Assembly (NCBI GenBank): GCA_965223265.1
Contig: OZ244999.1
Coordinates: 5,184,001 to 5,248,000 of the forward strand
DNA: 64,000 nt
Direction: 5' to 3'
Source of the DNA: Planctomycetota bacterium
GTDB lineage: Bacteria > Planctomycetota > UBA8108 > SXIK01
Shown: piece after piece, positions 31,598-45,410 of the stretch
How positions within the stretch are numbered: the first letter of the stretch is position 1
How the letters are laid out: each line of letters starts with the position of its first letter
The notes under the pieces: model-generated
The model's database searches: none
The model's input: only the letters and a program-made list of their open reading frames with translations
What the model was told of the DNA's origin: nothing
Position numbers and translations under genes: made by a program

Positions 31598-32407
31598 ATG
31601 AGGGTACAAAAGGACGGCGAACGCATCCGTCGCATGTTCGCTTCGATCGCCCCGCGCTACGATCTCCTCAATCACGTTCTCAGCCTGAACGTCGATCGCT
31701 CCTGGCGTCGACGTACCGTGCGTGAACTCAACCTCGACGCCTCGGCGCGGGTCCTCGACGTCTGTACCGGCACAGCTGATCTGGCACTCGAGCTCACGCG
31801 TGCCGTCCGCCCAGCCGACGGTGGTCTCGTCGTCGGCAGCGATTTTACTGCCGAAATGGTCAAACTCGGCGCCGAGAAGATCGGTGGCGAAAAGAGAAGG
31901 CGCTCCTGCGGTGATCGCCCGAACCTTTGCGTTGCGGATACGCTGGCGTTGCCGTTTCCCGACGCCGCGTTCGACGCCGTTACCGTCGGCTTCGGCGTCA
32001 GGAACCTGGCCGACCTCCGCGCCGGTCTCGTCGAGATGTTGAGGGTCCTGAAGCCCCACGGCCAGGTGGCGATCCTGGAGTTTTCGACGCCACGCTCGCC
32101 GGCCTTTCGCGGTCTCTACAAGTTTTACTTTCGCCGCTTGCTGCCGAAACTGGGCAGCTGGATTTCACGCACGGAGTGTGGCAAAAGTGCGTATGAGTAC
32201 CTCCCAGCCTCCGTGGCGGAGTTCCCATCTGCTCCAGCGTTGTCGGATCTCATGAAGAGCTGTGGATACGAAGACGTTCGATACCACACCTTGACGTTTG
32301 GCATCACGACACTCCACCTCGCCTGCAGGCCGCCCGCTTCGACGGCAGCAGACGATCTCGAGACAGGGACACGCACAATCGCGCCGGTAGAGAGCGACAC
32401 GCAATGA
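31598..32407 (+). CDS. menG: Demethylmenaquinone methyltransferase (UbiE/MenG)
   Basis: MFASIAPRYDLLN, LDVCTGTAD, GFGVRN, LEFS, YEYLPAS; TATAAT upstream at 31532. Confidence 0.92.
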   Translation: MRVQKDGERIRRMFASIAPRYDLLNHVLSLNVDRSWRRRTVRELNLDASARVLDVCTGTADLALELTRAVRPADGGLVVGSDFTAEMVKLGAEKIGGEKRRRSCGDRPNLCVADTLALPFPDAAFDAVTVGFGVRNLADLRAGLVEMLRVLKPHGQVAILEFSTPRSPAFRGLYKFYFRRLLPKLGSWISRTECGKSAYEYLPASVAEFPSAPALSDLMKSCGYEDVRYHTLTFGITTLHLACRPPASTAADDLETGTRTIAPVESDTQ

Positions 32408-32428: not shown

Positions 32429-33082
32429 ATGACCGCGAGCACCGAGACCTCGCAAGCAGGCTCCATGAATAAGCCACCAGGAGAAGGCCCCATCGTCGTC
32501 GGCGTTACCGGCGCAAGCGGGGTTGTCTACGCGCAGCGTCTCGTCCGCTTCCTGCTGCACGCCGGTCACGAAGTCCAACTGGCGATCTCGCGCGCAGGGC
32601 GCCTGGTGATCCAACAGGAAATCGAGCTTTCGGGCGCCAACGATCCGTGGGGCGAGGAACATCGCGAACGTCTGACGATCTTTTCCGAAGCGAATCTTAT
32701 GGCCCCGTTTTGCAGCGGTTCGTACAGATTCCGCGGTGTGGCCATCGTGCCCGCCTCAATGAGCACCGTCGCGGCCATCGCCAACGGCTTTAGCGCTAAC
32801 AACATCCACCGCGCCGCCGACGTCGCGCTGAAAGAACAGCGACCGCTCGTTCTCGTGCCGCGCGAGACGCCGCTCTCGGTCATTCACCTACAGAATCTTC
32901 TCAAACTGGCGCAAGCGGGTGCAGTCATTTTGCCGCCGTGCCCGGCGTTCTACCAACGACCGGCGACCATGAACGAGTCCATCGATTTCGTCGTCTCGCG
33001 GGTGCTTGACGCGCTAGGGATCAGCAACGAACTATATCCTCGCTGGCCGGAAACGCCTGGCTCATACGACGAGCACACTTGA
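32429..33082 (+). CDS. ubiX: Flavin prenyltransferase
   Basis: GVTGASG, SGS, RAADVALKE, PRETP, PAFY. Confidence 0.95.
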   Translation: MTASTETSQAGSMNKPPGEGPIVVGVTGASGVVYAQRLVRFLLHAGHEVQLAISRAGRLVIQQEIELSGANDPWGEEHRERLTIFSEANLMAPFCSGSYRFRGVAIVPASMSTVAAIANGFSANNIHRAADVALKEQRPLVLVPRETPLSVIHLQNLLKLAQAGAVILPPCPAFYQRPATMNESIDFVVSRVLDALGISNELYPRWPETPGSYDEHT

Positions 33083-33107: not shown

Positions 33108-33959
33108 ATGTTCAGAAGAATCTCCACGTTCTGCGAATCGATCAAGATCTCCCATTCGGTTTTCGCTCTGCCGTTCGCTGTTGCGGCTGCGTTCCTCGCC
33201 AGCTCGGGCTTGCCACCGGGGCTGCTCCTCATCAAGATCATCCTGGCGGTCGTCTTCGCACGTACGTCCGCAATGGCCTTCAATCGCTGGTGCGACGCGC
33301 GAATCGATGCTCTCAATCCCAGAACAGAAAACCGCGCTGTCGTTACTGGCGAGCTCACTGGCCGCTTCATGCTCGGCGCGGCGATCTGCAGCTCGCTCGC
33401 TTTTGTCGCGGTCGCCGCAACGATCAATCCGCTCGCGTTGATCCTGTCGCCCGTCGCGCTGGGAATCCTCTTGGGATATTCCTACACGAAACGCTTTACG
33501 CCGCTGTCGCACGTCGTGCTCGGCGTTGCGCTTGGGCTCTCCCCCCTCGGTGCATGGATCGCCGTTCGCGGCGAATTCGCCCTCGTGCCGACCCTGCTTG
33601 GTCTCGCCGTGCTCCTCTGGACCGCGGGGTTCGATATCATTTACGCCTGTCAAGACGAGGCGTTCGATCGCCAGCACGGGCTTTTCTCGATTCCACAGAC
33701 GCTAGGTGTCGGCGCGGCGCTTTGGGTGACGCGGGTGTTCCATCTCATCGCCGTCGCGCTGCTTGCCATCGTCGGTTGGCAAGCGCAGCTTGGCGTGATC
33801 TACGCCTCAGGAGTCGCTATGGTCGCGATCATTCTCGCGTACGAGAACTCGCTCGTCAGAGCTGAGGATTTGTCGCGCGTCAACCTTGCATTCTTCACGC
33901 TAAACGGCATCGTCAGCCTCGTTTTTATGGCGGCAGTGATCCTTCAAATCGTGCTATAA
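33108..33959 (+). CDS. ubiA: UbiA-family prenyltransferase (MqnP-like)
   Basis: HSVFALPF, ARTSAMAFNR..D..IDALNPRT..R, YSYTKRF, GFDIIYACQD, AFFTLNG. Confidence 0.9.
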   Translation: MFRRISTFCESIKISHSVFALPFAVAAAFLASSGLPPGLLLIKIILAVVFARTSAMAFNRWCDARIDALNPRTENRAVVTGELTGRFMLGAAICSSLAFVAVAATINPLALILSPVALGILLGYSYTKRFTPLSHVVLGVALGLSPLGAWIAVRGEFALVPTLLGLAVLLWTAGFDIIYACQDEAFDRQHGLFSIPQTLGVGAALWVTRVFHLIAVALLAIVGWQAQLGVIYASGVAMVAIILAYENSLVRAEDLSRVNLAFFTLNGIVSLVFMAAVILQIVL

Positions 33960-34104
33960 TGACCTAAATCCGGGCGTTGCACGCGCTCAACTCTTGTCAG
34001 GCTTTGGGGTCTGTCGACTGCCCATGCATTCCTGCTCTAGAGTAGACACTCTCAGGACGGTGGGTAAGGGGCCTGACACGTTGTTTCCGAGCGTTTCCTT
34101 GACG

Positions 34105-34228
34105 CAACCTATTGAGAAGGTCGTTTGCCCCGAGACCGGGTCTGTGCGTCACAGACCGTGCCCATCTTCATCGGTCGGTCTGTGAAGATGAGCGACACAC
34201 CTTGGCGCGAGCACTTTTCAATAGGCTG
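34105..34228. mobile_element. Putative MITE-like element with terminal inverted repeats
   Basis: CAACCTATTGAGAAG (34105-34119) vs CTTTTCAATAGGCTG (34214-34228), a 13/15 inverted match; intergenic. Confidence 0.55.
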
Positions 34229-34283
34229 TTAACCAAAAACTTTTCACACGAGCAACGCGAAACCGCGGCGCTCACGGGAAGCT

Positions 34284-36206
34284 ATGGCAACTCAGCAGGG
34301 ACTAACTCTCGACCAATATCTTCGTGCCAAAGGACCGCTACCGCCCCTGAAGGCGGCTCGCGTGATGCGGGACATCGCCGAACAGGCGCAAGTGGGCACT
34401 GATTTTTGCGCCATCTCACCGGCGCGCATCGCGATTTCGAAGTCAGGCGTTCGCCTTCTCGCGGCTCCGAACCCAACGAAGCCGGTCATCGTTCAACGAG
34501 TCAACTACGTCGCTCCTGAGACGATTCGCCACGGCACCCAGGACGAATCAAGCCTCCTCTACTCCCTCGGCTGCACCTTGTTCGAACTCGTCGCCGGTAC
34601 AGCGCCCTTCGCTAGCGAGAATCCCAAAGCGACTCTCAAAGCACACCTGACGGCGGTTCCGCCGAGCCTCGAGCATGCCGCACCAGGAACTCCGCCGCGT
34701 CTCTTGGCAGTGGTCAACGCGCTCCTGCAACGAGATCCGACGCGGCGACCGAATTCCCTAGCAGAGGTCGCCCAGGCGTTGGTCAACATCGATTCGGACG
34801 CCCCCCCGATCGCGAGCGTCCCCACGCGAACTTCCACTGCCGCCAGCCGGCGACCGACTTCCAGATCCAGATTGGCCGCGCGGCGTCGTCGCGAAGAAGA
34901 CGACGACGGCAAGCGGCCGACGCGAAAGAAGAAGAGTTATGGTTTTACGATCGCGGGTGCGTTGATCGGGTTGGTCATAGCTCTCTTCCTGGTCCCATGG
35001 GAGATCGCGCGACAGGACAGGCAAACACTCACGAAGCGTGACGCAAACCGCAGCAAGTTGGAAGTCGAACGCAGCGAGCGAAAAGAGGCGCTGCGGGCGG
35101 AAATCGGCGCTGCGCAGGCCGAAGTCGATCGTCTGATACAAACTCGCGGCTCTGACGCACAAGCGATTGGCTACCACCTCGCTGAGCTCGTCCATGCACG
35201 TGGAGCTGAACGCCTGGGCGAACTCTACGTTGATCTCGCGATGACAGGCGGAGCGAAGAAAGGCGGAGAAGTCGACCCAGCGTACGAAGAGCTGCGAGCG
35301 AAGATCAGCGAGCTTCTGGCAGAGAATCGACACGGTGACGCTCTCAAGCAACTCGCGGATGCAGGGCGAACGTTTCCAGGTCGCACTGCCGACATTGAAC
35401 GACAGATCCTTGAGGTCTCCGAGCAGCTAACGAAGCAGTGGAATCGCGACAAAAACGCGATTGAGGCCATGCTGCGGCGAGAGCGTTTCAATCAAGCCCT
35501 CAGCCTGATCGCGCAGGTCCACGTCTACGGCGACGCCCCCATTCGGCGAGAGCTCGAGACCTACGAAGATCAGGCGCGGCGGCTCAAGGCAGAGGCTCAG
35601 GCAGAGGTCGAAGCGGAGATCATGAGAGCCAAGCGACGACGGTCGGACAAAGAGGACGACGAAGAAGACGAAGATGAAGAGGACGACGACGAGGAAGAGG
35701 ACGAAGAAGACGAAGAGGACGACTGGGGCGATGACGACGACGAGGAAGAAGACGAAGAGGAAGAAGACGAAGAGGACGACTGGGGCGATGACGACGACGA
35801 GGAAGAGGACGACGACGACTGGGGCGATGACGACGAGGAAGAAGACGAGGACGACGAAGAAGACGAAGAAGACGACTGGGGCGATGACGACGACGAGGAC
35901 GAAGAAGACGAGGACGAAGAAGACGAAGAAGACGAAGAGGAAGAAGACGAAGAGGACGACTGGGGCGATGACGACGACGAGGAAGAAGACGAAGAAGACG
36001 ACTGGGGCGATGACGACGACGAAGACGACGAAGACGAAGAAGACGACTGGGGCGATGACGACGAAGAAGACGAAGAGGACGACTGGGGCGATGACGACGA
36101 CGAGGAAGAAGACGAGGACGACGATGACTGGGACGATGACGAAGAGGACGACGATGAGGAGGAGGATGAAGAGGATGACGACGAGGACGAGGACGACGAC
36201 TGGTGA
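34284..36206 (+). CDS. Membrane pseudokinase (Ser/Thr kinase C-lobe) with extreme acidic DDW-repeat tail
   Basis: YVAPE and YSLGCTLFELVAGTAPF are present; Gly-loop, HRD and DFG are absent. RKKK then TM, a helical domain and a 184-aa D/E/W/G tail. Confidence 0.8.
   Translation: MATQQGLTLDQYLRAKGPLPPLKAARVMRDIAEQAQVGTDFCAISPARIAISKSGVRLLAAPNPTKPVIVQRVNYVAPETIRHGTQDESSLLYSLGCTLFELVAGTAPFASENPKATLKAHLTAVPPSLEHAAPGTPPRLLAVVNALLQRDPTRRPNSLAEVAQALVNIDSDAPPIASVPTRTSTAASRRPTSRSRLAARRRREEDDDGKRPTRKKKSYGFTIAGALIGLVIALFLVPWEIARQDRQTLTKRDANRSKLEVERSERKEALRAEIGAAQAEVDRLIQTRGSDAQAIGYHLAELVHARGAERLGELYVDLAMTGGAKKGGEVDPAYEELRAKISELLAENRHGDALKQLADAGRTFPGRTADIERQILEVSEQLTKQWNRDKNAIEAMLRRERFNQALSLIAQVHVYGDAPIRRELETYEDQARRLKAEAQAEVEAEIMRAKRRRSDKEDDEEDEDEEDDDEEEDEEDEEDDWGDDDDEEEDEEEEDEEDDWGDDDDEEEDDDDWGDDDEEEDEDDEEDEEDDWGDDDDEDEEDEDEEDEEDEEEEDEEDDWGDDDDEEEDEEDDWGDDDDEDDEDEEDDWGDDDEEDEEDDWGDDDDEEEDEDDDDWDDDEEDDDEEEDEEDDDEDEDDDW
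35652..36203 (+). repeat. Coding low-complexity repeat: 8 x GACTGGGGCGATGACGAC within GAN codon runs
   Basis: Encodes 8 DDWG, 1 DDWD and a terminal DDW. Confidence 0.95.
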
Positions 36207-37114
36207 AACGCTCTGAGCCGATCCCGCCATCGAGGGACGACGACACTCCCTGGCTCAGCGAAATGGTGGACGAAGAGCTTCTGGTTCTCTTTTCCGAGGA
36301 CACAGAAGACATCGCGCGGGGCGTCCTTCATCTTCTCCGCTTGGCGACGATCCGCCCCGATGTCGAAGAGCAGCTCGTCGATCTGATCGACGCGGCGCTC
36401 GAACATTCGAACGACGATGCGCAAGCCGCCACGTGGGCAACGGTGATTCTGGCGGAACTCGGATCCTCTCTTGGTATCGGAGTGATCCAGAGAGCGCTGC
36501 TGGCAGAAAACGACGAGACGCTCCAAAACACTGCGGCGGTCGCTCTTCTGCGCCTCGGAAGCCGCGGCCTCGACGCTGTCATGGAGACGATCGAGGAAAC
36601 CCAAAGCCCCACGTTCAACCGCCACGCCTACCGCGTCCTCGCCAACACCGGTGTCCTTGAGGATCCAGACACGACGCAGCGAGTGACGGAATTCCTCGAA
36701 GAACGAGTGCCGATCGAGCGCGGCCTACCGCCCCAAGACCGCGTGCTCGAAGAACTCGCAGATGCCCTGGCGAGGGTGGGCGCGCGTGAGAACATTAGCG
36801 TCCTCAAGGAGATCCTCGCCGAGGAATTTCAAGGCTCGAACTGCGCCCTTGAGGACTCGATCGCCATGCTCGAGGAAAACGACAGCGGCGATCCGATCGG
36901 CGCCCACACTCCACCGTGGGAGGAGCTGTACGGTTGGATGTTCGAACGTGCCGCACCGTCGGCTCTGCTTGAGCGCGATGCTGGGGGGGACATCACGATC
37001 GACCTGCCGTTCGGAGAAACTACGGACCCATCGTCTACCTCACCCGAGCACCGCTCGTCGTTTCTACGAGGCTTGAACGTCGAACCAAGAGAGAAGCCAG
37101 ACGAAGAGACATGA
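36203..37114 (+). CDS. HEAT-repeat protein
   Basis: GTGA overlap with the upstream stop; ATVILAELG, AAVALLRLG and LADALARVG HEAT-like helices. Confidence 0.7.
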   Translation: MKRSEPIPPSRDDDTPWLSEMVDEELLVLFSEDTEDIARGVLHLLRLATIRPDVEEQLVDLIDAALEHSNDDAQAATWATVILAELGSSLGIGVIQRALLAENDETLQNTAAVALLRLGSRGLDAVMETIEETQSPTFNRHAYRVLANTGVLEDPDTTQRVTEFLEERVPIERGLPPQDRVLEELADALARVGARENISVLKEILAEEFQGSNCALEDSIAMLEENDSGDPIGAHTPPWEELYGWMFERAAPSALLERDAGGDITIDLPFGETTDPSSTSPEHRSSFLRGLNVEPREKPDEET

Positions 37115-37262
37115 GCGGTCGTGGCCGCGCGCTTGGCGCCTCGCGCCGAAAGGCAGCCGGGACGAGTCCCCTGCTCCCTTCAGAGGCATGCCGGACGTCC
37201 TGCCGATCGCTCAAACTCGAAGGCGCCGAGCAGAGCGTTGAACAGCCCTTTCCAAGAGGCTG

Positions 37263-39035
37263 TTAGGTAAAATCGTCTTCCTCGTCATCGTCGTCCTCGT
37301 AATCGAGCGGCGCCAGCGAACGGAGGACAGCTTTGACGATATGTTTGAGCAACAGCAGGTTCTCTGGATGCGCTCGCAACATGTCCCAGCGGAAGTTCCA
37401 AGCTCGTTCCGATTGCATGGCAGCTCCCATGCTCGAAACCGAAGTGTTCGGCCACTTCTCCTTGAGGTCCAGCCTGAGATTCCATGCTGCCGCGCTATCG
37501 ATGCCGCTGATCGAATCAAGAACTTCTTTGGCGTAGTTCTTCGCCGCGTCTCGAACCTTCCAAGCACGCGGGTCGTTCGAGCGTCCGATGGTCTGGACGA
37601 CGATTTTCGGCGCTCGTACGACGTGCTCTTCGCGTAGGGCCCAGGCTCGGTCTGAGCTCAGCCCACGAAGACTCATTAGCACCCACGGCAGGTACTCAGC
37701 CGACAAACGATCGCGCCACTCCCAGGCACGTTCGGTGTCGATTCCCGCGAGGCTTTCGAGTATGGCGGGAAAATGTGGGAAGTGCGCCCTCTTTTCCCGC
37801 ATCGCCCACGCCTCTTCGGTGTCGAGACCGCGGAGACTGATCAGCACCTCGCGCATGGCCGATTTGCCGATCATCCGGCGGATGTCCCACGCGTGCTCGG
37901 AGTCTGAACCGCGCACAGTCAAGGCCACATACTCGGGGACGACTTGAGCAAGCTCGGTTCTGAGCGCCATCGCTTCAGGAGACTGCCCCGTCAAACTTCG
38001 TGCCACATACGCCGGTTCGATTTGTTTCAGCTTCTCGCGAAGCTCGTAAGACTCTGGCGTCCGCACCCCACGCAGGCCGTAGGCGACAACACCTGGTTCG
38101 TCGTCAATGATCGCGAGACGAAGCTCATGGGTCTCGGGCGTGTTCAAACCGATCAGATGCAACCCTACCTGACTCGGGCTCGTCGCGACCCGTTGGCGAA
38201 GCTCTTCGAAGAACGCGGTGTACGCTGTCTCCCGACGCTCGACAGGATCCTCGATACTGAGAAAACGCGCCACGGCTTCAGCGAGACGCCCGCGCGGTTT
38301 CGACTGTGACGCGCTCGAAAAGTCCACCCATCGCGGGTTGGTCAACCTCTTGTAACCCTTGGACTCAAGAACCTGCGCGACGCGATCAAAAATCCTCTGC
38401 AGCGACTCTTCGATCGTGCTATTTGCGTTGTCGATCACAACCCAGCGTTCTGGGTCCTCTTGAGCAAGCTTCAGAAACCCGTTGCGCATCTCCTCGCGAA
38501 AACCGATCCCCATGAGCCCCTTGCGGCCGAAATCTCCAAGCTTTCGATGATCCCGGATTTTTTGAACTCGTTTGCGCATCCGCGACGTCAGAGGGTCAAC
38601 GTCACTATACACGACGAGGTCAGGCCAAAGCCCGCGTGCGGCGACTTCCACGACCGCATCCACCTGGTCGCGTGGCACGCCACGCGCGTGATGACTATGG
38701 GTGATCGCGGAGTACAGATAGCGGTCACTGAACACGATGTTTCCCGGCTTGAGCTTTGGCCGGATGAACTCGTCGATCATCTGAGTGTCACGCGCGACGT
38801 AGAGCAGCAACTCGGTTGCATCGGACATGCGGAGGAATCGCGGGTCGCGCGTCAGAAGTCGAATTTCCTTCGAAATCTCGGAGCGAAAAACGCCTCCACT
38901 TCGCGCGTGGTGAACCGGGATCCCCTGCTCCTCCAAAACCGCCGCAAGACGATTCGAAAGCGTCGTCTTGCCGCTACCGTCGATTCCTTCGAAGTCGATG
39001 AAGACTGGGGCGGGTCCGGCTTCACACTGATCCAT
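37263..39035 (-). CDS. tmk: Thymidylate kinase fused to a C-terminal helical repeat domain
   Basis: FEGIDGSGKTT P-loop, ELLLYVAR, DRYLYS, PDLV; about ten 27-aa repeats follow. Start is 39035 or 39086. Confidence 0.85.
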   Translation of the reverse strand: MDQCEAGPAPVFIDFEGIDGSGKTTLSNRLAAVLEEQGIPVHHARSGGVFRSEISKEIRLLTRDPRFLRMSDATELLLYVARDTQMIDEFIRPKLKPGNIVFSDRYLYSAITHSHHARGVPRDQVDAVVEVAARGLWPDLVVYSDVDPLTSRMRKRVQKIRDHRKLGDFGRKGLMGIGFREEMRNGFLKLAQEDPERWVVIDNANSTIEESLQRIFDRVAQVLESKGYKRLTNPRWVDFSSASQSKPRGRLAEAVARFLSIEDPVERRETAYTAFFEELRQRVATSPSQVGLHLIGLNTPETHELRLAIIDDEPGVVAYGLRGVRTPESYELREKLKQIEPAYVARSLTGQSPEAMALRTELAQVVPEYVALTVRGSDSEHAWDIRRMIGKSAMREVLISLRGLDTEEAWAMREKRAHFPHFPAILESLAGIDTERAWEWRDRLSAEYLPWVLMSLRGLSSDRAWALREEHVVRAPKIVVQTIGRSNDPRAWKVRDAAKNYAKEVLDSISGIDSAAAWNLRLDLKEKWPNTSVSSMGAAMQSERAWNFRWDMLRAHPENLLLLKHIVKAVLRSLAPLDYEDDDDEEDDFT

Positions 39036-39241
39036 GAGATTCGCTCGCGTTGCGCCAAAAGGTGGGGTAACCGCCCGCAGCTCCACTGTCGTAGCACGAC
39101 ACCAGACGAGCGCGCCGCGACTAACGGATGGGCAGTTCGCGCTCGGCCCGAGGAGACGCCTGCGACGAGGGAGGTGGAACGCGCGACTCTCCCTCGGCGA
39201 GGTTGTTCACGAAGTCGTCGCCTCGCAAGAAAAGACCACCC

Positions 39242-41415: not shown

Positions 41416-44400
41416 TCATGGCCCACAACCCGCAATCGAGTCCGGCGTCTCATCGAAACCCAAATTGGGGTAGGGCGGCGGAATGAATGGTCCGTCCTTG
41501 AAGAGAAAGTTCGCCAGGAAGACAGGGTCGGCCACATCGATCAATCCACTGTCATCTGCGTCGAGGGCGTCGAGGCAAAACGGAAACCGTGACTCCTCCG
41601 AAAAAAGCAGCGCCAGGCTTCGTGTTACATCCGTGACGTTGAGACGGCCATCCTCGTTGGCATCGCCACGCAGGAACATCCGCGGCGCATCGGAATTGGA
41701 CACCCCGGGCGAAGGCGTCGCGAGGACCGAGATGTCCCCGAGCCCGTCTGGCTGCCGCCCGAGCGAACGATCCATCGCGAGAGCAGTAAAATCGAATTCG
41801 AACGAATCGATCACGCAGCTACCGTTCGCTACCGAGTTGATGAGATAGATCGCCCCCTGCCCGTCGAGGTCAAACGCGCTGAGCTCCTCTCCCGTCAACT
41901 CGAAAGCGGCGAAGCCATTCGGCTCGATGGCGGCAGCGCCAGCGAGCTCCAGCTTCTGCGGAAAGCGTTCATCGTCGGTCAACATGAGGCCGTCAATCGC
42001 GACCGTCTCCGTCGCACTAAGGTTCACTAGTTCGACCCACTTGCGAGGCACGCCCGATCCGTCTCCGAGCGGCGCATTCCGATTCAATTCGTTGATCGCC
42101 ACCGGGGGTCTCTCTGCCGCAGCCGTACCAAAGCTAAAGGGTCCGGCCGCGAGCGCCGAGCCGCACAGATCCGTGAGTTCGACTTCATACGAAACAACCG
42201 GTGGCAACTCTCCCCCTCTCAGATCCGCCACCACCTCGAGGTGCACACTCGTGTATCCCGGCGGCGAGACAGCGCAGGCGCCAGCTCCCAGGCCGCACGA
42301 GAAGTTTCTGATGCTCGCCCGCGTCTCTTCAGATGTGTCACCGATCTGGACACGGAACATCGCCTCGTCGATGGCGAAGTTCGGATTGAGTGTGGCGGGA
42401 TCGAGAGCCTCGATGAGCGAGGTATCAACGAAGACAACCGCCTGCAGGCGCACAAAACTCGTCGTCACACACGTATTGTTCGCGTCTAAGAGATCGGTGT
42501 GGAAGGCGCTGTGAAACAAGGGCGGCAGCAGATCCGACAGGTTGCGCTGATCAGGCGTCGGCACAAGTTCCGCGAATGGACTCTCGGCGTCGCAAAGCCG
42601 TCCGAACGAGATGTCGGCCCGACAGGTCCCGTCCGGAGCGTCGAGATCCCACGTCAGTGTATCGACGATCGAGTTGGCACCTCCTTCACGGCCGTCGGGC
42701 GCGATGAGGAAGAGCGTCTCTTCGCACGCGAGTTCGAAACTGCCTGACACCTCGAAGTACCGCGGCGGCACCGGATCTGGTGGCGGCCCGAAGTACAGCG
42801 TCAAGACGTCACCGGGAGCGACAATGGCCCCATCCGGGAAGCGCCATTCGCGCGCCCGGCGGACCGGCAAAGTAAACGACTCAGGAAACTTAGCCTGCGC
42901 CAGGTAGTAACCGCTGAGGTCGAACGGCTCACCGCCAGAATTAAAGAGCTCAACATAGTCGTGCGACTTGGGGTCAAGCGACCCGACAAACGGTGGCAAG
43001 AGCGTCGTCTCATTGTCCGGCAAGACCTCATTGAAGCGAGGCGTCGCGGGGTCGCGCTCGAATCCGACGAGATACTGAAACGACACTTCCACGTCCGGCC
43101 TGTCGTCGTAGATCGTCTCGAGTCCGAGCGCCAGGTCTTGAGCGACTAACGAAAACGTAACGAACGAACCGCTCGGCTGGGGCGGGATCTCGGCCTCGAC
43201 GTCGTAGAGCAGACTCGCAGCTGCGGCGGCGCCTTGATTGGTAGCGAGCTCAAGGTCCGCTCCCGTCAGCTGGACCACACCACCTTCGCCGGGATCGCTC
43301 GAGTAGTGAATCTCGACAATCGCTTGGCTCGGAAGTGTGTCCTGGTCGAAGCTCACCTGCGAGCGCACAAGCACGGCGTCATCCGCCTGTGGGTTGCGAG
43401 GAAAGACCGTAACGATTTCGTCAAACCGCGGCTGCACGTCACACACAAGCGTGTTGTCTCCGCCAGGTGTCGGTGTACACAGAAAGTTTCCCGGGGCCAA
43501 TTCGCCAGTAAACATCGATTCGACGACGGATGGACGACCAAGGGAAACGTCTGCCTTGACCGTAGGAATCATCGAGAGCTCGTCACGAAACTCCGGTGGC
43601 ACTTCCTCGAATCGGATCTCAACGAGATCGATCTTGCGGCCACTGGGATCAAGAAGCACGAAACCATCCGGGTCGTTGCGTCTTGTCGCGTCGAGCCGAA
43701 AGCTCGTCGACACGAAGTACGGAACGCCGTCGCCATCCAGCAATTGGCAACCCGCAGCCCCACGCAGCTGTCCCACGTCCTCAAGCCGGTAGATAGGACG
43801 TTCATCACGATCTCGATTGTCGGCCAGGACGACTAAGAAACATCCCGGCTCGAGTACGATCGACTCGGTGGCTATCTCGTATGGGACAGAAGGATCAATG
43901 AATCGCCACGGATCGAGTTGCAGCAACTCGCCGGTACCAAAGCGCCGCCAATCTCCGAGCGAGACCATGCCAAACTCACTGAGATCGACCGCCTCGGTGC
44001 CGAAGTTGTGTATCTCGAACCAGTCCGGCGTCTTGACGCGATTGCCGAGAAAGAACCGCAGCGAGTCATTGATTGGTACATATTCGTTGACTAAGAGGGT
44101 GGCGAGCTGACTCTGCCCCTCGCCGAACGTTAAACAATCGAGTAGTTGCCGGGTGGTCAGATTCTCGACCGTCACAGTCACACGCCCGCGGCGAACCGTG
44201 CCGCACGGAGCGCCTGGAATGACGCCACGATAGTTAAGCTGCGAGCGAGGAACGACTAGAGGAGTGCCGTTGATGTCCACGCGACTCGTGTCCGGTGGCG
44301 CCGGCGTCACAGAGTCGAGAAAGAGCTCGACGCCTTCGATCGTGAAGGGCTGATCCGCAACTCCCTGCACGCAAGAGTCGAGATCGGTATAGTCGAGCAC

Positions 44401-45174
44401 GGTGACGACCTCGTCGACTCTGGAGGTATCTACAGTGACTCTGAACCCGACGTCGGCACTCTCGCCGCAGGCTGGCAGAACTGTCGAAAGTTCCGTCCCG
44501 TTCACTGCTAAGGTGCCGGTATCCGTCGGCATATTCGGCGCACTCGGGGTCGGTCCGGAGTAGATCACACCAAACTCCCCAGCTCCATCCGGGAAACGCC
44601 CGACCGAGACATTCTGTTCGACCCCACGGACTCCGACACGGTCAACAAGCACGCCGCCGTCAAAGAGATAAAGCGTCTCCGCGGCACCGAAGCCGAAGTC
44701 CGCCGTCAGACCGGTCGGTGCACAACTGGTGACGCAGGTGTCGAACGCCGTAAAGCACTCCGCCTCGTCCGAGGGCGTCGGTTCCGTCAAAGCGGCCAGA
44801 CAGGCGTCTCGCTCTTCAGCGCACGTTGGCGCACACCTCTCCTTGCGAAACACGAAGACGACGACGAACTCCTTCGCGTCAATGACGGCGCCGGGGGGAA
44901 AACGAAACTTGCCGGGGCGATCAAGGTCGTCAGAGAGCGAAAACCCGGCAAGAGAGAGAGGAGTGCTGCCGTCGTTGAAGATCTCGACCCAATCCTGGAC
45001 GATCGGCGCACCAGCGTCGTCGAGGACCACCGTCGAGGAGTTTCTCGGCATCGCCTCGTTGAGGCGCAGGGCCCGTCGGCTGCTCGAGGAACGCGACGAT
45101 GGCTCACAGGAAAGAAGCGCGACGATGGCGAAACAGGCGCAAAGCCAAATGCGAGACCGGTCGTAGACCTTCAT
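41416..45174 (-). CDS. Secreted/lipoprotein with four lamin-tail domains and C-terminal dockerin-like domain
   Basis: Lipobox-like LLS-C; LNEAMP, VNEYVP, FNEVLP and INELN units with (D/K)(W/Y)xE(I/L)xN; FLRGDANEDG dockerin. Confidence 0.8.
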   Translation of the reverse strand: MKVYDRSRIWLCACFAIVALLSCEPSSRSSSSRRALRLNEAMPRNSSTVVLDDAGAPIVQDWVEIFNDGSTPLSLAGFSLSDDLDRPGKFRFPPGAVIDAKEFVVVFVFRKERCAPTCAEERDACLAALTEPTPSDEAECFTAFDTCVTSCAPTGLTADFGFGAAETLYLFDGGVLVDRVGVRGVEQNVSVGRFPDGAGEFGVIYSGPTPSAPNMPTDTGTLAVNGTELSTVLPACGESADVGFRVTVDTSRVDEVVTVLDYTDLDSCVQGVADQPFTIEGVELFLDSVTPAPPDTSRVDINGTPLVVPRSQLNYRGVIPGAPCGTVRRGRVTVTVENLTTRQLLDCLTFGEGQSQLATLLVNEYVPINDSLRFFLGNRVKTPDWFEIHNFGTEAVDLSEFGMVSLGDWRRFGTGELLQLDPWRFIDPSVPYEIATESIVLEPGCFLVVLADNRDRDERPIYRLEDVGQLRGAAGCQLLDGDGVPYFVSTSFRLDATRRNDPDGFVLLDPSGRKIDLVEIRFEEVPPEFRDELSMIPTVKADVSLGRPSVVESMFTGELAPGNFLCTPTPGGDNTLVCDVQPRFDEIVTVFPRNPQADDAVLVRSQVSFDQDTLPSQAIVEIHYSSDPGEGGVVQLTGADLELATNQGAAAAASLLYDVEAEIPPQPSGSFVTFSLVAQDLALGLETIYDDRPDVEVSFQYLVGFERDPATPRFNEVLPDNETTLLPPFVGSLDPKSHDYVELFNSGGEPFDLSGYYLAQAKFPESFTLPVRRAREWRFPDGAIVAPGDVLTLYFGPPPDPVPPRYFEVSGSFELACEETLFLIAPDGREGGANSIVDTLTWDLDAPDGTCRADISFGRLCDAESPFAELVPTPDQRNLSDLLPPLFHSAFHTDLLDANNTCVTTSFVRLQAVVFVDTSLIEALDPATLNPNFAIDEAMFRVQIGDTSEETRASIRNFSCGLGAGACAVSPPGYTSVHLEVVADLRGGELPPVVSYEVELTDLCGSALAAGPFSFGTAAAERPPVAINELNRNAPLGDGSGVPRKWVELVNLSATETVAIDGLMLTDDERFPQKLELAGAAAIEPNGFAAFELTGEELSAFDLDGQGAIYLINSVANGSCVIDSFEFDFTALAMDRSLGRQPDGLGDISVLATPSPGVSNSDAPRMFLRGDANEDGRLNVTDVTRSLALLFSEESRFPFCLDALDADDSGLIDVADPVFLANFLFKDGPFIPPPYPNLGFDETPDSIAGCGP

Positions 45175-45410
45175 CGTCAGACGGCGCATAGAGAGAAAGG
45201 CTCCTCTTTCCAGCACCCGTTCAATTCGAGATCCTCCCGCGGTCAGATCCGCAGTCGGGATGTTCGGGACGTTACAATCAGGGAACTTTCCAGCCGGATA
45301 ACGTTGCAAGCCAGAACGCACGTCTCAGGCGAAGACATTCGGAATCGCGGCGATGGAACAACGGTGTGGACGGGCTGGTTCGATCAGGCGAGGAAACGCG
45401 AACGTTGGCG

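Follow-up and report, generated by a model that had tools for sequence, protein, structure and literature searches.

A conserved family of C-lobe-only membrane pseudokinases in Planctomycetota with acidic, probably extracytoplasmic tails

Bacterial pseudokinases are only now being catalogued. We describe here one that is encoded at positions 34284 to 36206 (forward strand) of a 64,000-nucleotide (nt) stretch of a Planctomycetota genome (assembly GCA_965223265.1, contig OZ244999.1, positions 5,184,001 to 5,248,000; the whole stretch is called the window and the genome G000), in which the C-lobe of a kinase is joined through a transmembrane (TM) helix to a helical domain and a tail made of Asp, Glu, Trp and Gly. 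Its best match in both sequence and fold is to the PknB-type (Hanks-type) receptor kinases, with which it shares the layout of kinase, basic linker, TM helix and extracytoplasmic part. Compared with PknB, the protein lacks the N-lobe (Gly-loop, VAIK Lys and alphaC) together with the HRD Asp, the catalytic Asn and the DFG Asp, and it ends in a polyacidic tail instead of a sensor domain. A kinase reduced in this way has a parallel in the KIND domain, which is described in animals and derived from PAK-like kinases. KIND is likewise a stand-alone C-lobe kept for interaction without catalysis (PMC2064798, in the part cited here). The nearest relatives of the present domain are bacterial PknB-like kinases, so its origin looks independent, and an order-wide family without an N-lobe would give the animal domain a counterpart in bacteria and be a clear instance of a kinase lobe reused as a scaffold.

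Dead bacterial Ser/Thr kinase (bSTK)-like domains with a TM helix C-terminal to them are known from the membrane pseudokinases MviN/ActPs3, EssB/YukC and GLW, and recent surveys, in the parts cited here, recognise seven bilobal families (PMC12599244; bioRxiv 10.1101/2025.01.12.632604). The main texts of these surveys contain neither 'Planctomycet' nor 'truncat'; their supplements may list more families. The named pseudokinase families of the 2025 bSTK atlas (ActPs1-3, GLW, CP1, DYD and DLHK) are marked by constraint patterns specific to each family in a bilobal domain.

The tail recalls the acidic-aromatic short linear motifs, in which Trp, Phe or Tyr likewise stands within runs of Asp and Glu, often at the C-terminus and often in several copies. 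Examples are the DDW motifs of WASP and cortactin, the W-acidic ligands of kinesin light chain, the GW/WG Argonaute hooks, the -DDDIPF end of SSB and the tail of T7 gp2.5; acidic-aromatic tails dock at replication forks and in eukaryotic trafficking. These motifs are short and cytoplasmic or eukaryotic, whereas the tail described here has 184 residues and is presumed periplasmic, so that the likeness is one of wording only, and we know of no bacterial counterpart of Arp2/3 or kinesin light chain, the eukaryotic partners of acidic-Trp motifs. Polyanionic disordered stretches on an extracytoplasmic envelope protein also occur in Neisseria LbpB, but there they form loops in a lobe of a lipoprotein instead of a tail, and the cited part of the source mentions no punctuation by Trp (PMC8577839). 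A search of the literature on planctomycete or N-lobe-less pseudokinases, acidic-Trp periplasmic tails and prokaryotic D/E repeats returned nothing on this pseudokinase family or its tail. The protein is a real, conserved and undescribed variant of the bacterial membrane pseudokinase, with the C-lobe only and an acidic, probably extracytoplasmic tail that is among the most extreme natural polyanions likely on any bacterial membrane protein.

Kinase C-lobe, membrane anchor and family

The gene and the parts of its product are arranged as follows.

34284..36206, forward strand: whole pseudokinase gene, 640 amino acids, then TGA
34284..34808, forward strand: residues 1-175, C-lobe-only pseudokinase domain, beginning at helix alphaD
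34809..34937, forward strand: residues 176-218, Pro/Arg/Ser-rich disordered linker ending RKKK (predicted local distance difference test score, pLDDT, below 50 for residues 178-214)
34938..34994, forward strand: residues 219-237, single TM helix, modelled as the start of one long helix 220-288
34995..35609, forward strand: residues 238-442, helical domain with a conserved W...YGD module, presumed periplasmic
35652..36203, forward strand: residues 457-640, polyacidic tail (93 Asp, 73 Glu, 10 Trp, 8 Gly)

The Pfam Pkinase profile (PF00069) matches residues 68-157 only, corresponding to profile positions 156-253 of 263, at 37.4 bits (curated cut-off 31.7; E 2.5e-9). In a phmmer search of the PDB, residues 5-175 align to residues 99-285 of M. 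tuberculosis PknB (E 7e-14), with FCA at the HRD position, Ser at the catalytic-loop Lys, Arg at the catalytic Asn and a gap at DFG; APE (as VAPE) and LYSLGCT are retained. The family consensus at the catalytic loop reads xHPGRI...LLP. Modelled by AlphaFold2 from 27 family sequences, residues 1-470 (mean pLDDT 87.3) form a confident C-lobe (residues 4-170, with pLDDT above 90 for 11-170), the disordered linker (178-214), the long helix (220-288) and a helical bundle reaching residue 459. VIA-align superposes the model on residues 91-283 of PknB (1mru_A) with a Z score of 24.5 and a root-mean-square deviation of 2.6 over 172 residues, Foldseek gives 3oro as its top match (E 3.9e-10), and PknB comes first with both tools. 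The fold is not bilobal: the protein begins at PknB residue ~91-99 and has no Gly-loop, beta3 Lys or alphaC Glu.

Residues P46, R48, P78, E79, Y93, G96, T98, G105, P127, L147 and R155 are invariant in 27 family sequences. E79 occupies the position of the APE Glu and R155 that of the alphaH-I Arg, which we take to form the salt bridge of the kinase C-lobe, and their invariance argues for a folded C-lobe domain under selection. The model, the VIA-align superposition and the E79/R155 pair describe a kinase-like fold with conserved structural residues, as in a pseudokinase, and by phmmer, model and VIA-align its kinase homology is confined to the C-lobe, as in KIND. A Pfam scan at E ≤0.1 listed only Pkinase and PK_Tyr_Ser-Thr, the presence of a KIND model in that library being unconfirmed. 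A preliminary description of the gene, made from the letters of the window, had already called it a membrane pseudokinase with only the C-lobe left and had proposed profile searches and structure prediction for the N-terminal part; Pfam, phmmer, AlphaFold2, Foldseek and VIA-align bear this out, so that sequence, profile and predicted fold all support a C-lobe-only membrane pseudokinase.

The start at 34284 is backed by the conservation of residues 5-27 across all orthologues. An entry of a public protein collection (P0002) has 613 residues and begins at Met28 (34365); orthologue conservation favours the 640-residue form. No remnant of an N-lobe was found in the three forward frames of 33960-34288 (325 bases upstream). 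A frameshifted full-length kinase was considered and rejected, since the upstream forward frames hold no N-lobe and all orthologues begin alike.

A HMMER scan of 1.84 billion representative sequences returned about 28 proteins whose residues 1-5 align to query residues 1-5, and about 25 Planctomycetota sequence clusters have the N-lobe-less start, TM helix, helical YGD module and acidic tail in common. Whole-genome searches add members from three families of the same order (f1, f2 and f3), and the named relatives are Planctomycetota metagenome-assembled genomes. All members fetched begin at or near M..G.TLD+YL, that is, at helix alphaD; the complete ones have a basic linker, one TM helix and the W...YGD helical domain, and most have an acidic tail. 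The gene thus belongs to a real and conserved family and is not a decayed gene. In a quick maximum-likelihood tree of 29 rows, which left out the fragments P0044, P0054, P0064, P0067, P0076 and P0144 and two near-duplicate loci, G000, a second genome of another genus (G001) and P0038, whose sequence ends before its tail, form one clade (Shimodaira-Hasegawa-like approximate likelihood ratio test, SH-aLRT, 96), with long branches flagged.

A profile of the helical domain matches 23 of 301 genomes of the phylum, G000 included. Strong full-length matches are limited to f1 and f2 (seven genomes, E ≤2.1e-39), and 16 more genomes give weaker matches to the second half of the profile, in proteins of 800-1240 residues from other families. 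Two of these longer proteins were examined. Both are full-length kinases that appear to be active and carry the module behind their TM helix, in one case with TPR repeats after it, so that the pseudokinase family seems to have arisen from a receptor kinase that lost its N-lobe. The domain itself has no significant Pfam match, and the best hit of its profile among PDB sequences is a de novo design (E 0.0057). Pfam TPR matches are weak (E 0.0065-0.13), with no single TPR model matching more than two of ten members. A separate model of the domain has a mean pLDDT of 77 and is confident for its residues 95-205; with Foldseek nothing came in under E 0.001, BamD being the top match (E 0.029, TM-score 0.28), and the best VIA-align Z score, 9.9 over 56 residues and mostly to TPR proteins, lies below the level of ~13 that the tool sets for helical proteins. 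A search of the ESM Atlas with residues 300-525 of the homologue P0039 reached a best score of 0.86, under the lead level of 0.9, with TPR hints only. A TPR-like character of the last 60 residues is thus a lead only, drawn from predicted structure.

No signal peptide precedes the 218-residue N-terminal part, and RKKK (residues 214-217) ends the Arg-rich linker directly before the hydrophobic stretch 219-237 (YGFTIAGALIGLVIALFLV; mean Kyte-Doolittle hydropathy 2.36). Across 12 orthologues, Lys and Arg within 10 residues of the TM helix number 39 on the N side and 25 on the C side. Together with the homology to receptor kinases, these features favour an N-in/C-out orientation, and the tail is probably periplasmic. 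The preliminary description had placed the tail outside the cytoplasm by the positive-inside rule; this is plausible, and the rule holds in the window copy (10 against 5 Lys and Arg within 20 residues), but it is weak in the family, with 39 against 34 within 15 residues. Given that near balance, the C-terminal part might instead be reversed, or the stretch might not span the membrane, leaving a cytoplasmic tail to dock to the HEAT-like or Tmk-like products of neighbouring genes. The overlap of the pseudokinase stop with the start of the HEAT gene (TGGTGA) and the deep synteny of the locus would fit such an arrangement, and in eukaryotes the kinesin light chain TPR domain is a helical-repeat protein that binds acidic-Trp peptides. 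We nevertheless regard it as very unlikely: the hydrophobic 19-mer is kept in all orthologues (mean hydropathy 1.9-2.8), the count within 10 residues points to N-in, and the homologous full-length kinases have their module after the TM helix, followed by more domains.

Composition and origin of the tail

The tail contains eight DDWG, one DDWD and a terminal DDDW followed by TGA, and carries a net charge of about -166 over its 184 residues; the account of it in the preliminary description was correct in every detail. It holds the most acidic 30-residue window of the 9.18-Mb genome (29 of 30 residues Asp or Glu) and, among open reading frames (ORFs) of at least 150 residues, the pseudokinase gene holds 10 of the 11 genomic matches to [DE]2-W-[GDE]-[DE]2, which together argue that the repeat is not a product of chance. 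Its codons are GAC (79), GAA (46), GAG (27), GAT (14), TGG (10) and GGC (8), so that none of the 184 has left GAN save the TGG and GGC of the repeated unit. The EF-hand type Ca2+ loop DxDxDG has no match in the tail, where Trp precedes every Gly. ORFs on the reverse strand and in alternative frames over the repeat (poly-S, poly-V and T/K-rich) were rejected as frame echoes of the GAN codons.

At the DNA level, the 39 nt around WG read GAAGACGAAGAGGACGAC-TGGGGC-GATGACGACGACGAG. This core is identical in four of the eight copies, and the remaining four depart from it at one or a few third positions. Tandem Repeats Finder reports periods of 3, 18, 42 and 57, and repeat-finding on the tail gave one smeared family with no clean unit. 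The Trp array is therefore one DNA unit that was amplified or homogenised within the tract, and with cores so nearly identical its regularity says little about selection at each Trp. The argument of the preliminary description, that the regular Trp punctuation speaks for selection rather than slippage, thus lacks support in that form; the evidence for constraint lies elsewhere, in the GAN-only codons, in the DDWGDDD and DDDW-stop common to G001, and in the Phe, Tyr or Leu found at like positions in related lineages. Retention of DDWGDDD and DDDW-stop across the deep split between G000 and G001 suggests that these elements are under selection.

Support for the assembled repeat was sought in short-read contigs of four runs (two samples of one study, which is probably the source). 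The contigs reach 78 nt into the repeat at its 5' end and 118 nt at its 3' end, and short exact pieces inside it match without a difference in the four runs; no short-read contig of these runs bridges the interval 35729-36086. With regard to the check in reads proposed in the preliminary description, these short-read contigs uphold the content of the repeat and leave its copy number to depend on the original assembly, in which the genome is one contig of 9.18 Mb. In run X3, one contig has a joint that skips 313 nt (35865 to 36179) at depth 2 and with 21 nt on one side, which is too weak for a length variant. That unbridged interval and this joint could be taken to mean that the repeat is an assembly artefact, but we consider this extremely improbable, since the reading frame runs on without interruption and closes precisely where the next conserved gene begins, the pieces inside the repeat agree in all runs, and the independent genome G001 has a like array.

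The tails of the orthologues vary as follows.

G000 (window): 184 residues of Asp, Glu, Trp and Gly; 8 DDWG, 1 DDWD and a terminal DDDW
G001: about 200 residues of Asp with Ser-Ser; 13 DDWG and a terminal DDDDDDDW-stop; protein of 734 residues
G016: DDDDDFG, DDDDFD and a terminal DDDDDY
G012: ends DDDL
Most other orthologues: 20-80 acidic residues

Lengths range from ~20 to 200 residues, and 25 of 26 complete tails are net negative. The G001 orthologue is 44% identical to the G000 protein over the kinase part; it keeps DDWGDDD and the DDDW-stop, its units of 45 nt are highly regular, and the rest of its tail is D/S instead of D/E. Outside G000, a Trp array is found in this one other genus only. 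Homology searches with the tail alone and with one alignment recovered just the protein of the window itself, probably since acidic words filled the candidate list, and so carry no information on relatives. The preliminary description had proposed a search for orthologues to see whether tail and Trp residues persist, and the answer is divided: the acidic tail is kept, but the Trp arrays are not, being present in 2 of 26. In the 24 tails without such an array, a hydrophobic-acidic motif, PHI-[DE]-x-[DE]-PHI-[DE] (for example LDKELE, LEKEFE and LEAEFE), occurs in 11, where 1000 composition-preserving shuffles yielded 0.94 on average and never more than 4; the count overstates independence, several tails being close kin, though the motif still occurs in separate clades. 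In the G012 orthologue (L096), the linker before the TM helix contains VEDDWDDWDDDDV and PEDDWQDEG, DDW wordings on the presumed cytoplasmic side.

Comparable endings occur on other proteins. The DNA pattern of xDDWGDDD was found at no fewer than 119 loci in public metagenome contigs, and the figures given here cover the 119 matches listed, of which 114 lie in ORFs closed at the 3' end. The motif falls within the last 30 residues in 63 of the 114 closed ORFs and, for closed ORFs of at least 100 residues, in 52 of 100 against 10.7 expected from uniform placement, an enrichment inflated by the COX2 and cytochrome c families, which are counted many times. A [DE][DE][W/F/Y]-stop end is present in 28 of the 114, and no kinase motif was seen in any carrier. 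By Pfam, the carriers include the COX2 periplasmic domain (~282 residues, ending ...GDDDDWGDDDDW) and multihaem cytochromes c of ~1000 residues with the same ending, and further a dihaem cytochrome c, MlaA, Hsp70, ArfGAP, ScpA and Tim44-like proteins. At three loci (L121, L149 and L186), a large cytochrome and COX2 lie ~6 kb apart on the same strand and both end ...DDW; at L186 the order is cytochrome c (L186:575-3571), Sco1/CusF, COX1, COX3 and COX2 (L186:9471-10319). These proteins share with the pseudokinase the DDWGDDD...W-stop wording, its C-terminal position and its attachment to domains that work in the periplasm, but they hold one or two units, not ten, and belong to unrelated protein families. 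That unrelated extracytoplasmic proteins of several kinds share this ending shows that tails of this type are present in the periplasm and that their placement at the extreme C-terminus is not random.

Cytochrome oxidase clusters with DDW ends were also seen at L152, L116 and L132. In 201 Planctomycetota genomes no DDW-ended COX2 was found (best identity 46-48%, tail not matched), and a literature search returned no description of DDW-ended COX2 or cytochrome c tails. Long D-rich DDDWG arrays with His/Asn punctuation (for example DDDHDDDWGDDDN, 8 units) occur at L190:9611-10570, L164, L145 and L221; these ORFs match no Pfam family and lie outside the pseudokinase family. Within G000, punctuated acidic tails were noted at C1:7151418-7154510, 2153543-2155528, 6570877-6573453, 6927352-6929859, 3938227-3938838 and 987850-988494, on proteins that include an FtsK-like protein, a PilM/N-like fusion and a HEAT-rich exported protein.

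Possible roles of the tail

We tentatively favour, with a confidence somewhat short of even, a bitopic inner-membrane dead-kinase scaffold that carries a periplasmic, multivalent acidic-aromatic docking tail. Such a protein would descend from a PknB-type receptor Ser/Thr kinase. Its cytoplasmic C-lobe, with neither ATP binding nor catalysis, would have been kept by selection as a protein-binding module in the manner of KIND, and the co-transcribed HEAT-like protein would be a candidate partner for it. After the TM helix, a stalk helix, the YGD module (carried also by active planctomycetal receptor kinases) and a disordered polyanionic tail would all lie in the periplasm, where the tail would keep hydrophobic or aromatic residues exposed amid acidic ones. 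These would belong to a short L-D/E-x-E-L/F-E motif in most orthologues, and in the G000 lineage to ten DDW units and a free ...DDDW-COOH end, the array having arisen from amplification of one unit of 39-57 nt. The tail could then act as a long-reach, electrostatically steered docking arm with many binding sites for a basic partner that has an aromatic pocket.

Several results weigh against this proposal. The eight WG units hardly differ as DNA, which leaves little independent evidence in how many there are or how they are spaced, and with Trp arrays in so few of the complete orthologue tails, Trp is not essential to the function of the family. In two genomes of the same taxonomic family (G002 and G003) the tails are acidic and Pro-rich but lack both Trp and the hydrophobic-acidic motif. 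G000 places acidic tails punctuated by Tyr, Phe or Leu on several unrelated proteins, which points to a compositional habit; the C-terminal enrichment in metagenomes is inflated as described above; and the positive-inside signal is weak across orthologues. Nor does tail size track the charge of the helical domain, which is net -3 in G000, 0 in G001 and -1 to -13 in others. The helical domain was considered as an intramolecular electrostatic partner of the tail and rejected, there being no charge compensation among orthologues.

Two accounts that dispense with docking have to be set beside it. In one, which we think doubtful, the tail would be a high-capacity, low-affinity periplasmic sponge for divalent cations, among them Ca2+, Mg2+ and metals, or a decoy that draws off polycations (polyamines, for instance, or cationic antimicrobial peptides), its Trp residues being passengers of the amplified unit. 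Polyacidic buffering of Ca2+ of the calsequestrin type is a known device, and the net charge of the tail fits it, as does the acidity of all complete orthologue tails but one, whatever their motifs. A precedent for the decoy is offered by the anionic surface loops of Neisseria LbpB, which the cited part of the source proposes to neutralise cationic peptide (PMC8577839). The canonical Ca2+ loop is missing from the tail, however, and a sponge leaves unexplained why DDWGDDD and DDDW survive in G001 despite the change from D/E to D/S, why the hydrophobic-acidic motif is enriched in other tails, and why DDW is biased to the C-terminus in unrelated proteins.

The other account, which we judge unlikely, sees a weakly constrained low-complexity expansion in which only negative charge matters, as a bristle or spacer, for solubility or for repulsion from membrane or wall; the Trp array would be a by-product of slippage or unequal recombination in a unit that happened to hold TGG GGC. 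Much about the repeat agrees with this, including the near-identical cores, the regular units of G001, the periods found by Tandem Repeats Finder, the tenfold spread in tail length among orthologues and the other acidic tails of G000. What tells against it is the absence of any departure from GAN in 184 codons beyond the unit's own TGG and GGC, together with the same motif and the same end in orthologues only 44% identical in the folded domain, and the enrichment of the hydrophobic-acidic motif in other tails.

The DDW ends on periplasmic cytochromes and COX2 give the docking proposal a testable form, namely that acidic-aromatic tails may be a periplasmic docking device. Carried further, ...DDW(G)DDDW-COOH tails would be a general, hitherto undescribed docking code, read by a receptor or pocket in the periplasm of diverse bacteria. 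We consider so general a code distinctly unlikely. If it existed, respiratory partners such as the cytochrome c and COX2 of one cluster would find each other by it, and in the G000 lineage its ten-fold amplification on a dead-kinase scaffold would have produced a multivalent hub coupling a periplasmic assembly to a cytoplasmic HEAT-protein complex.

Gene neighbourhood

The genes around the pseudokinase are these.

31598-32407, forward strand: UbiE/MenG, upstream, syntenic, menaquinone-type
32429-33082, forward strand: UbiX, upstream, syntenic, menaquinone-type
33108-33959, forward strand: UbiA/MqnP-like prenyltransferase, upstream, syntenic, menaquinone-type
36203..37114, forward strand: HEAT-like protein of 303 residues, downstream, syntenic in all orthologous loci inspected
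37263..39086, reverse strand: dTMP-kinase-like (Tmk-like) domain fused to a repeat domain, convergent, syntenic, ends YEDDDDEEDDFT

The order UbiE-UbiX-UbiA-pseudokinase-HEAT, followed by the convergent Tmk-like fusion, is conserved in f1 and f2, and in the f2 locus a VTC-domain protein comes next. The GTG start of the HEAT gene overlaps the last Trp codon and the stop of the pseudokinase gene (TGGTGA). A scan of 33800-37400 gave no promoter-like site; its one terminator-like site falls within the HEAT gene, and shuffled sequences gave more. The interval 33900-34400 has no Rfam match.

The HEAT-like protein has no signal peptide and is well conserved, at a mean column identity of 54%. Its conserved features include an acidic N-terminus, D.PWL+[DE][ML][VL]D[DE], and a PWEE.YGW.FE motif, and the f2 orthologues end in a His/Cys-rich sequence (HHHHDCGDDGCTH) that hints at metal binding. 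In G002 and G003, a gene for ~245 residues stands between the pseudokinase and HEAT genes (L015:3280-4023; L014:3310-4047); its product has a signal-peptide-like start and carries DGDTV...VRY[LV]G[VI]DTPE, and is presumably of the staphylococcal-nuclease type. The Tmk-like fusion scores 98 bits with TIGR00041 and has a repeat domain of ~370 residues, and its G001 and G002 orthologues also end D-x-DFT. A canonical tmk of 213 residues lies elsewhere in the genome (G000:C1:2832814-2833371), which makes the fusion a second, divergent copy. Further downstream, on the reverse strand (41416-45321), a protein of 1301 residues matches the Lamin Tail Domain in two stretches (E 1e-29).

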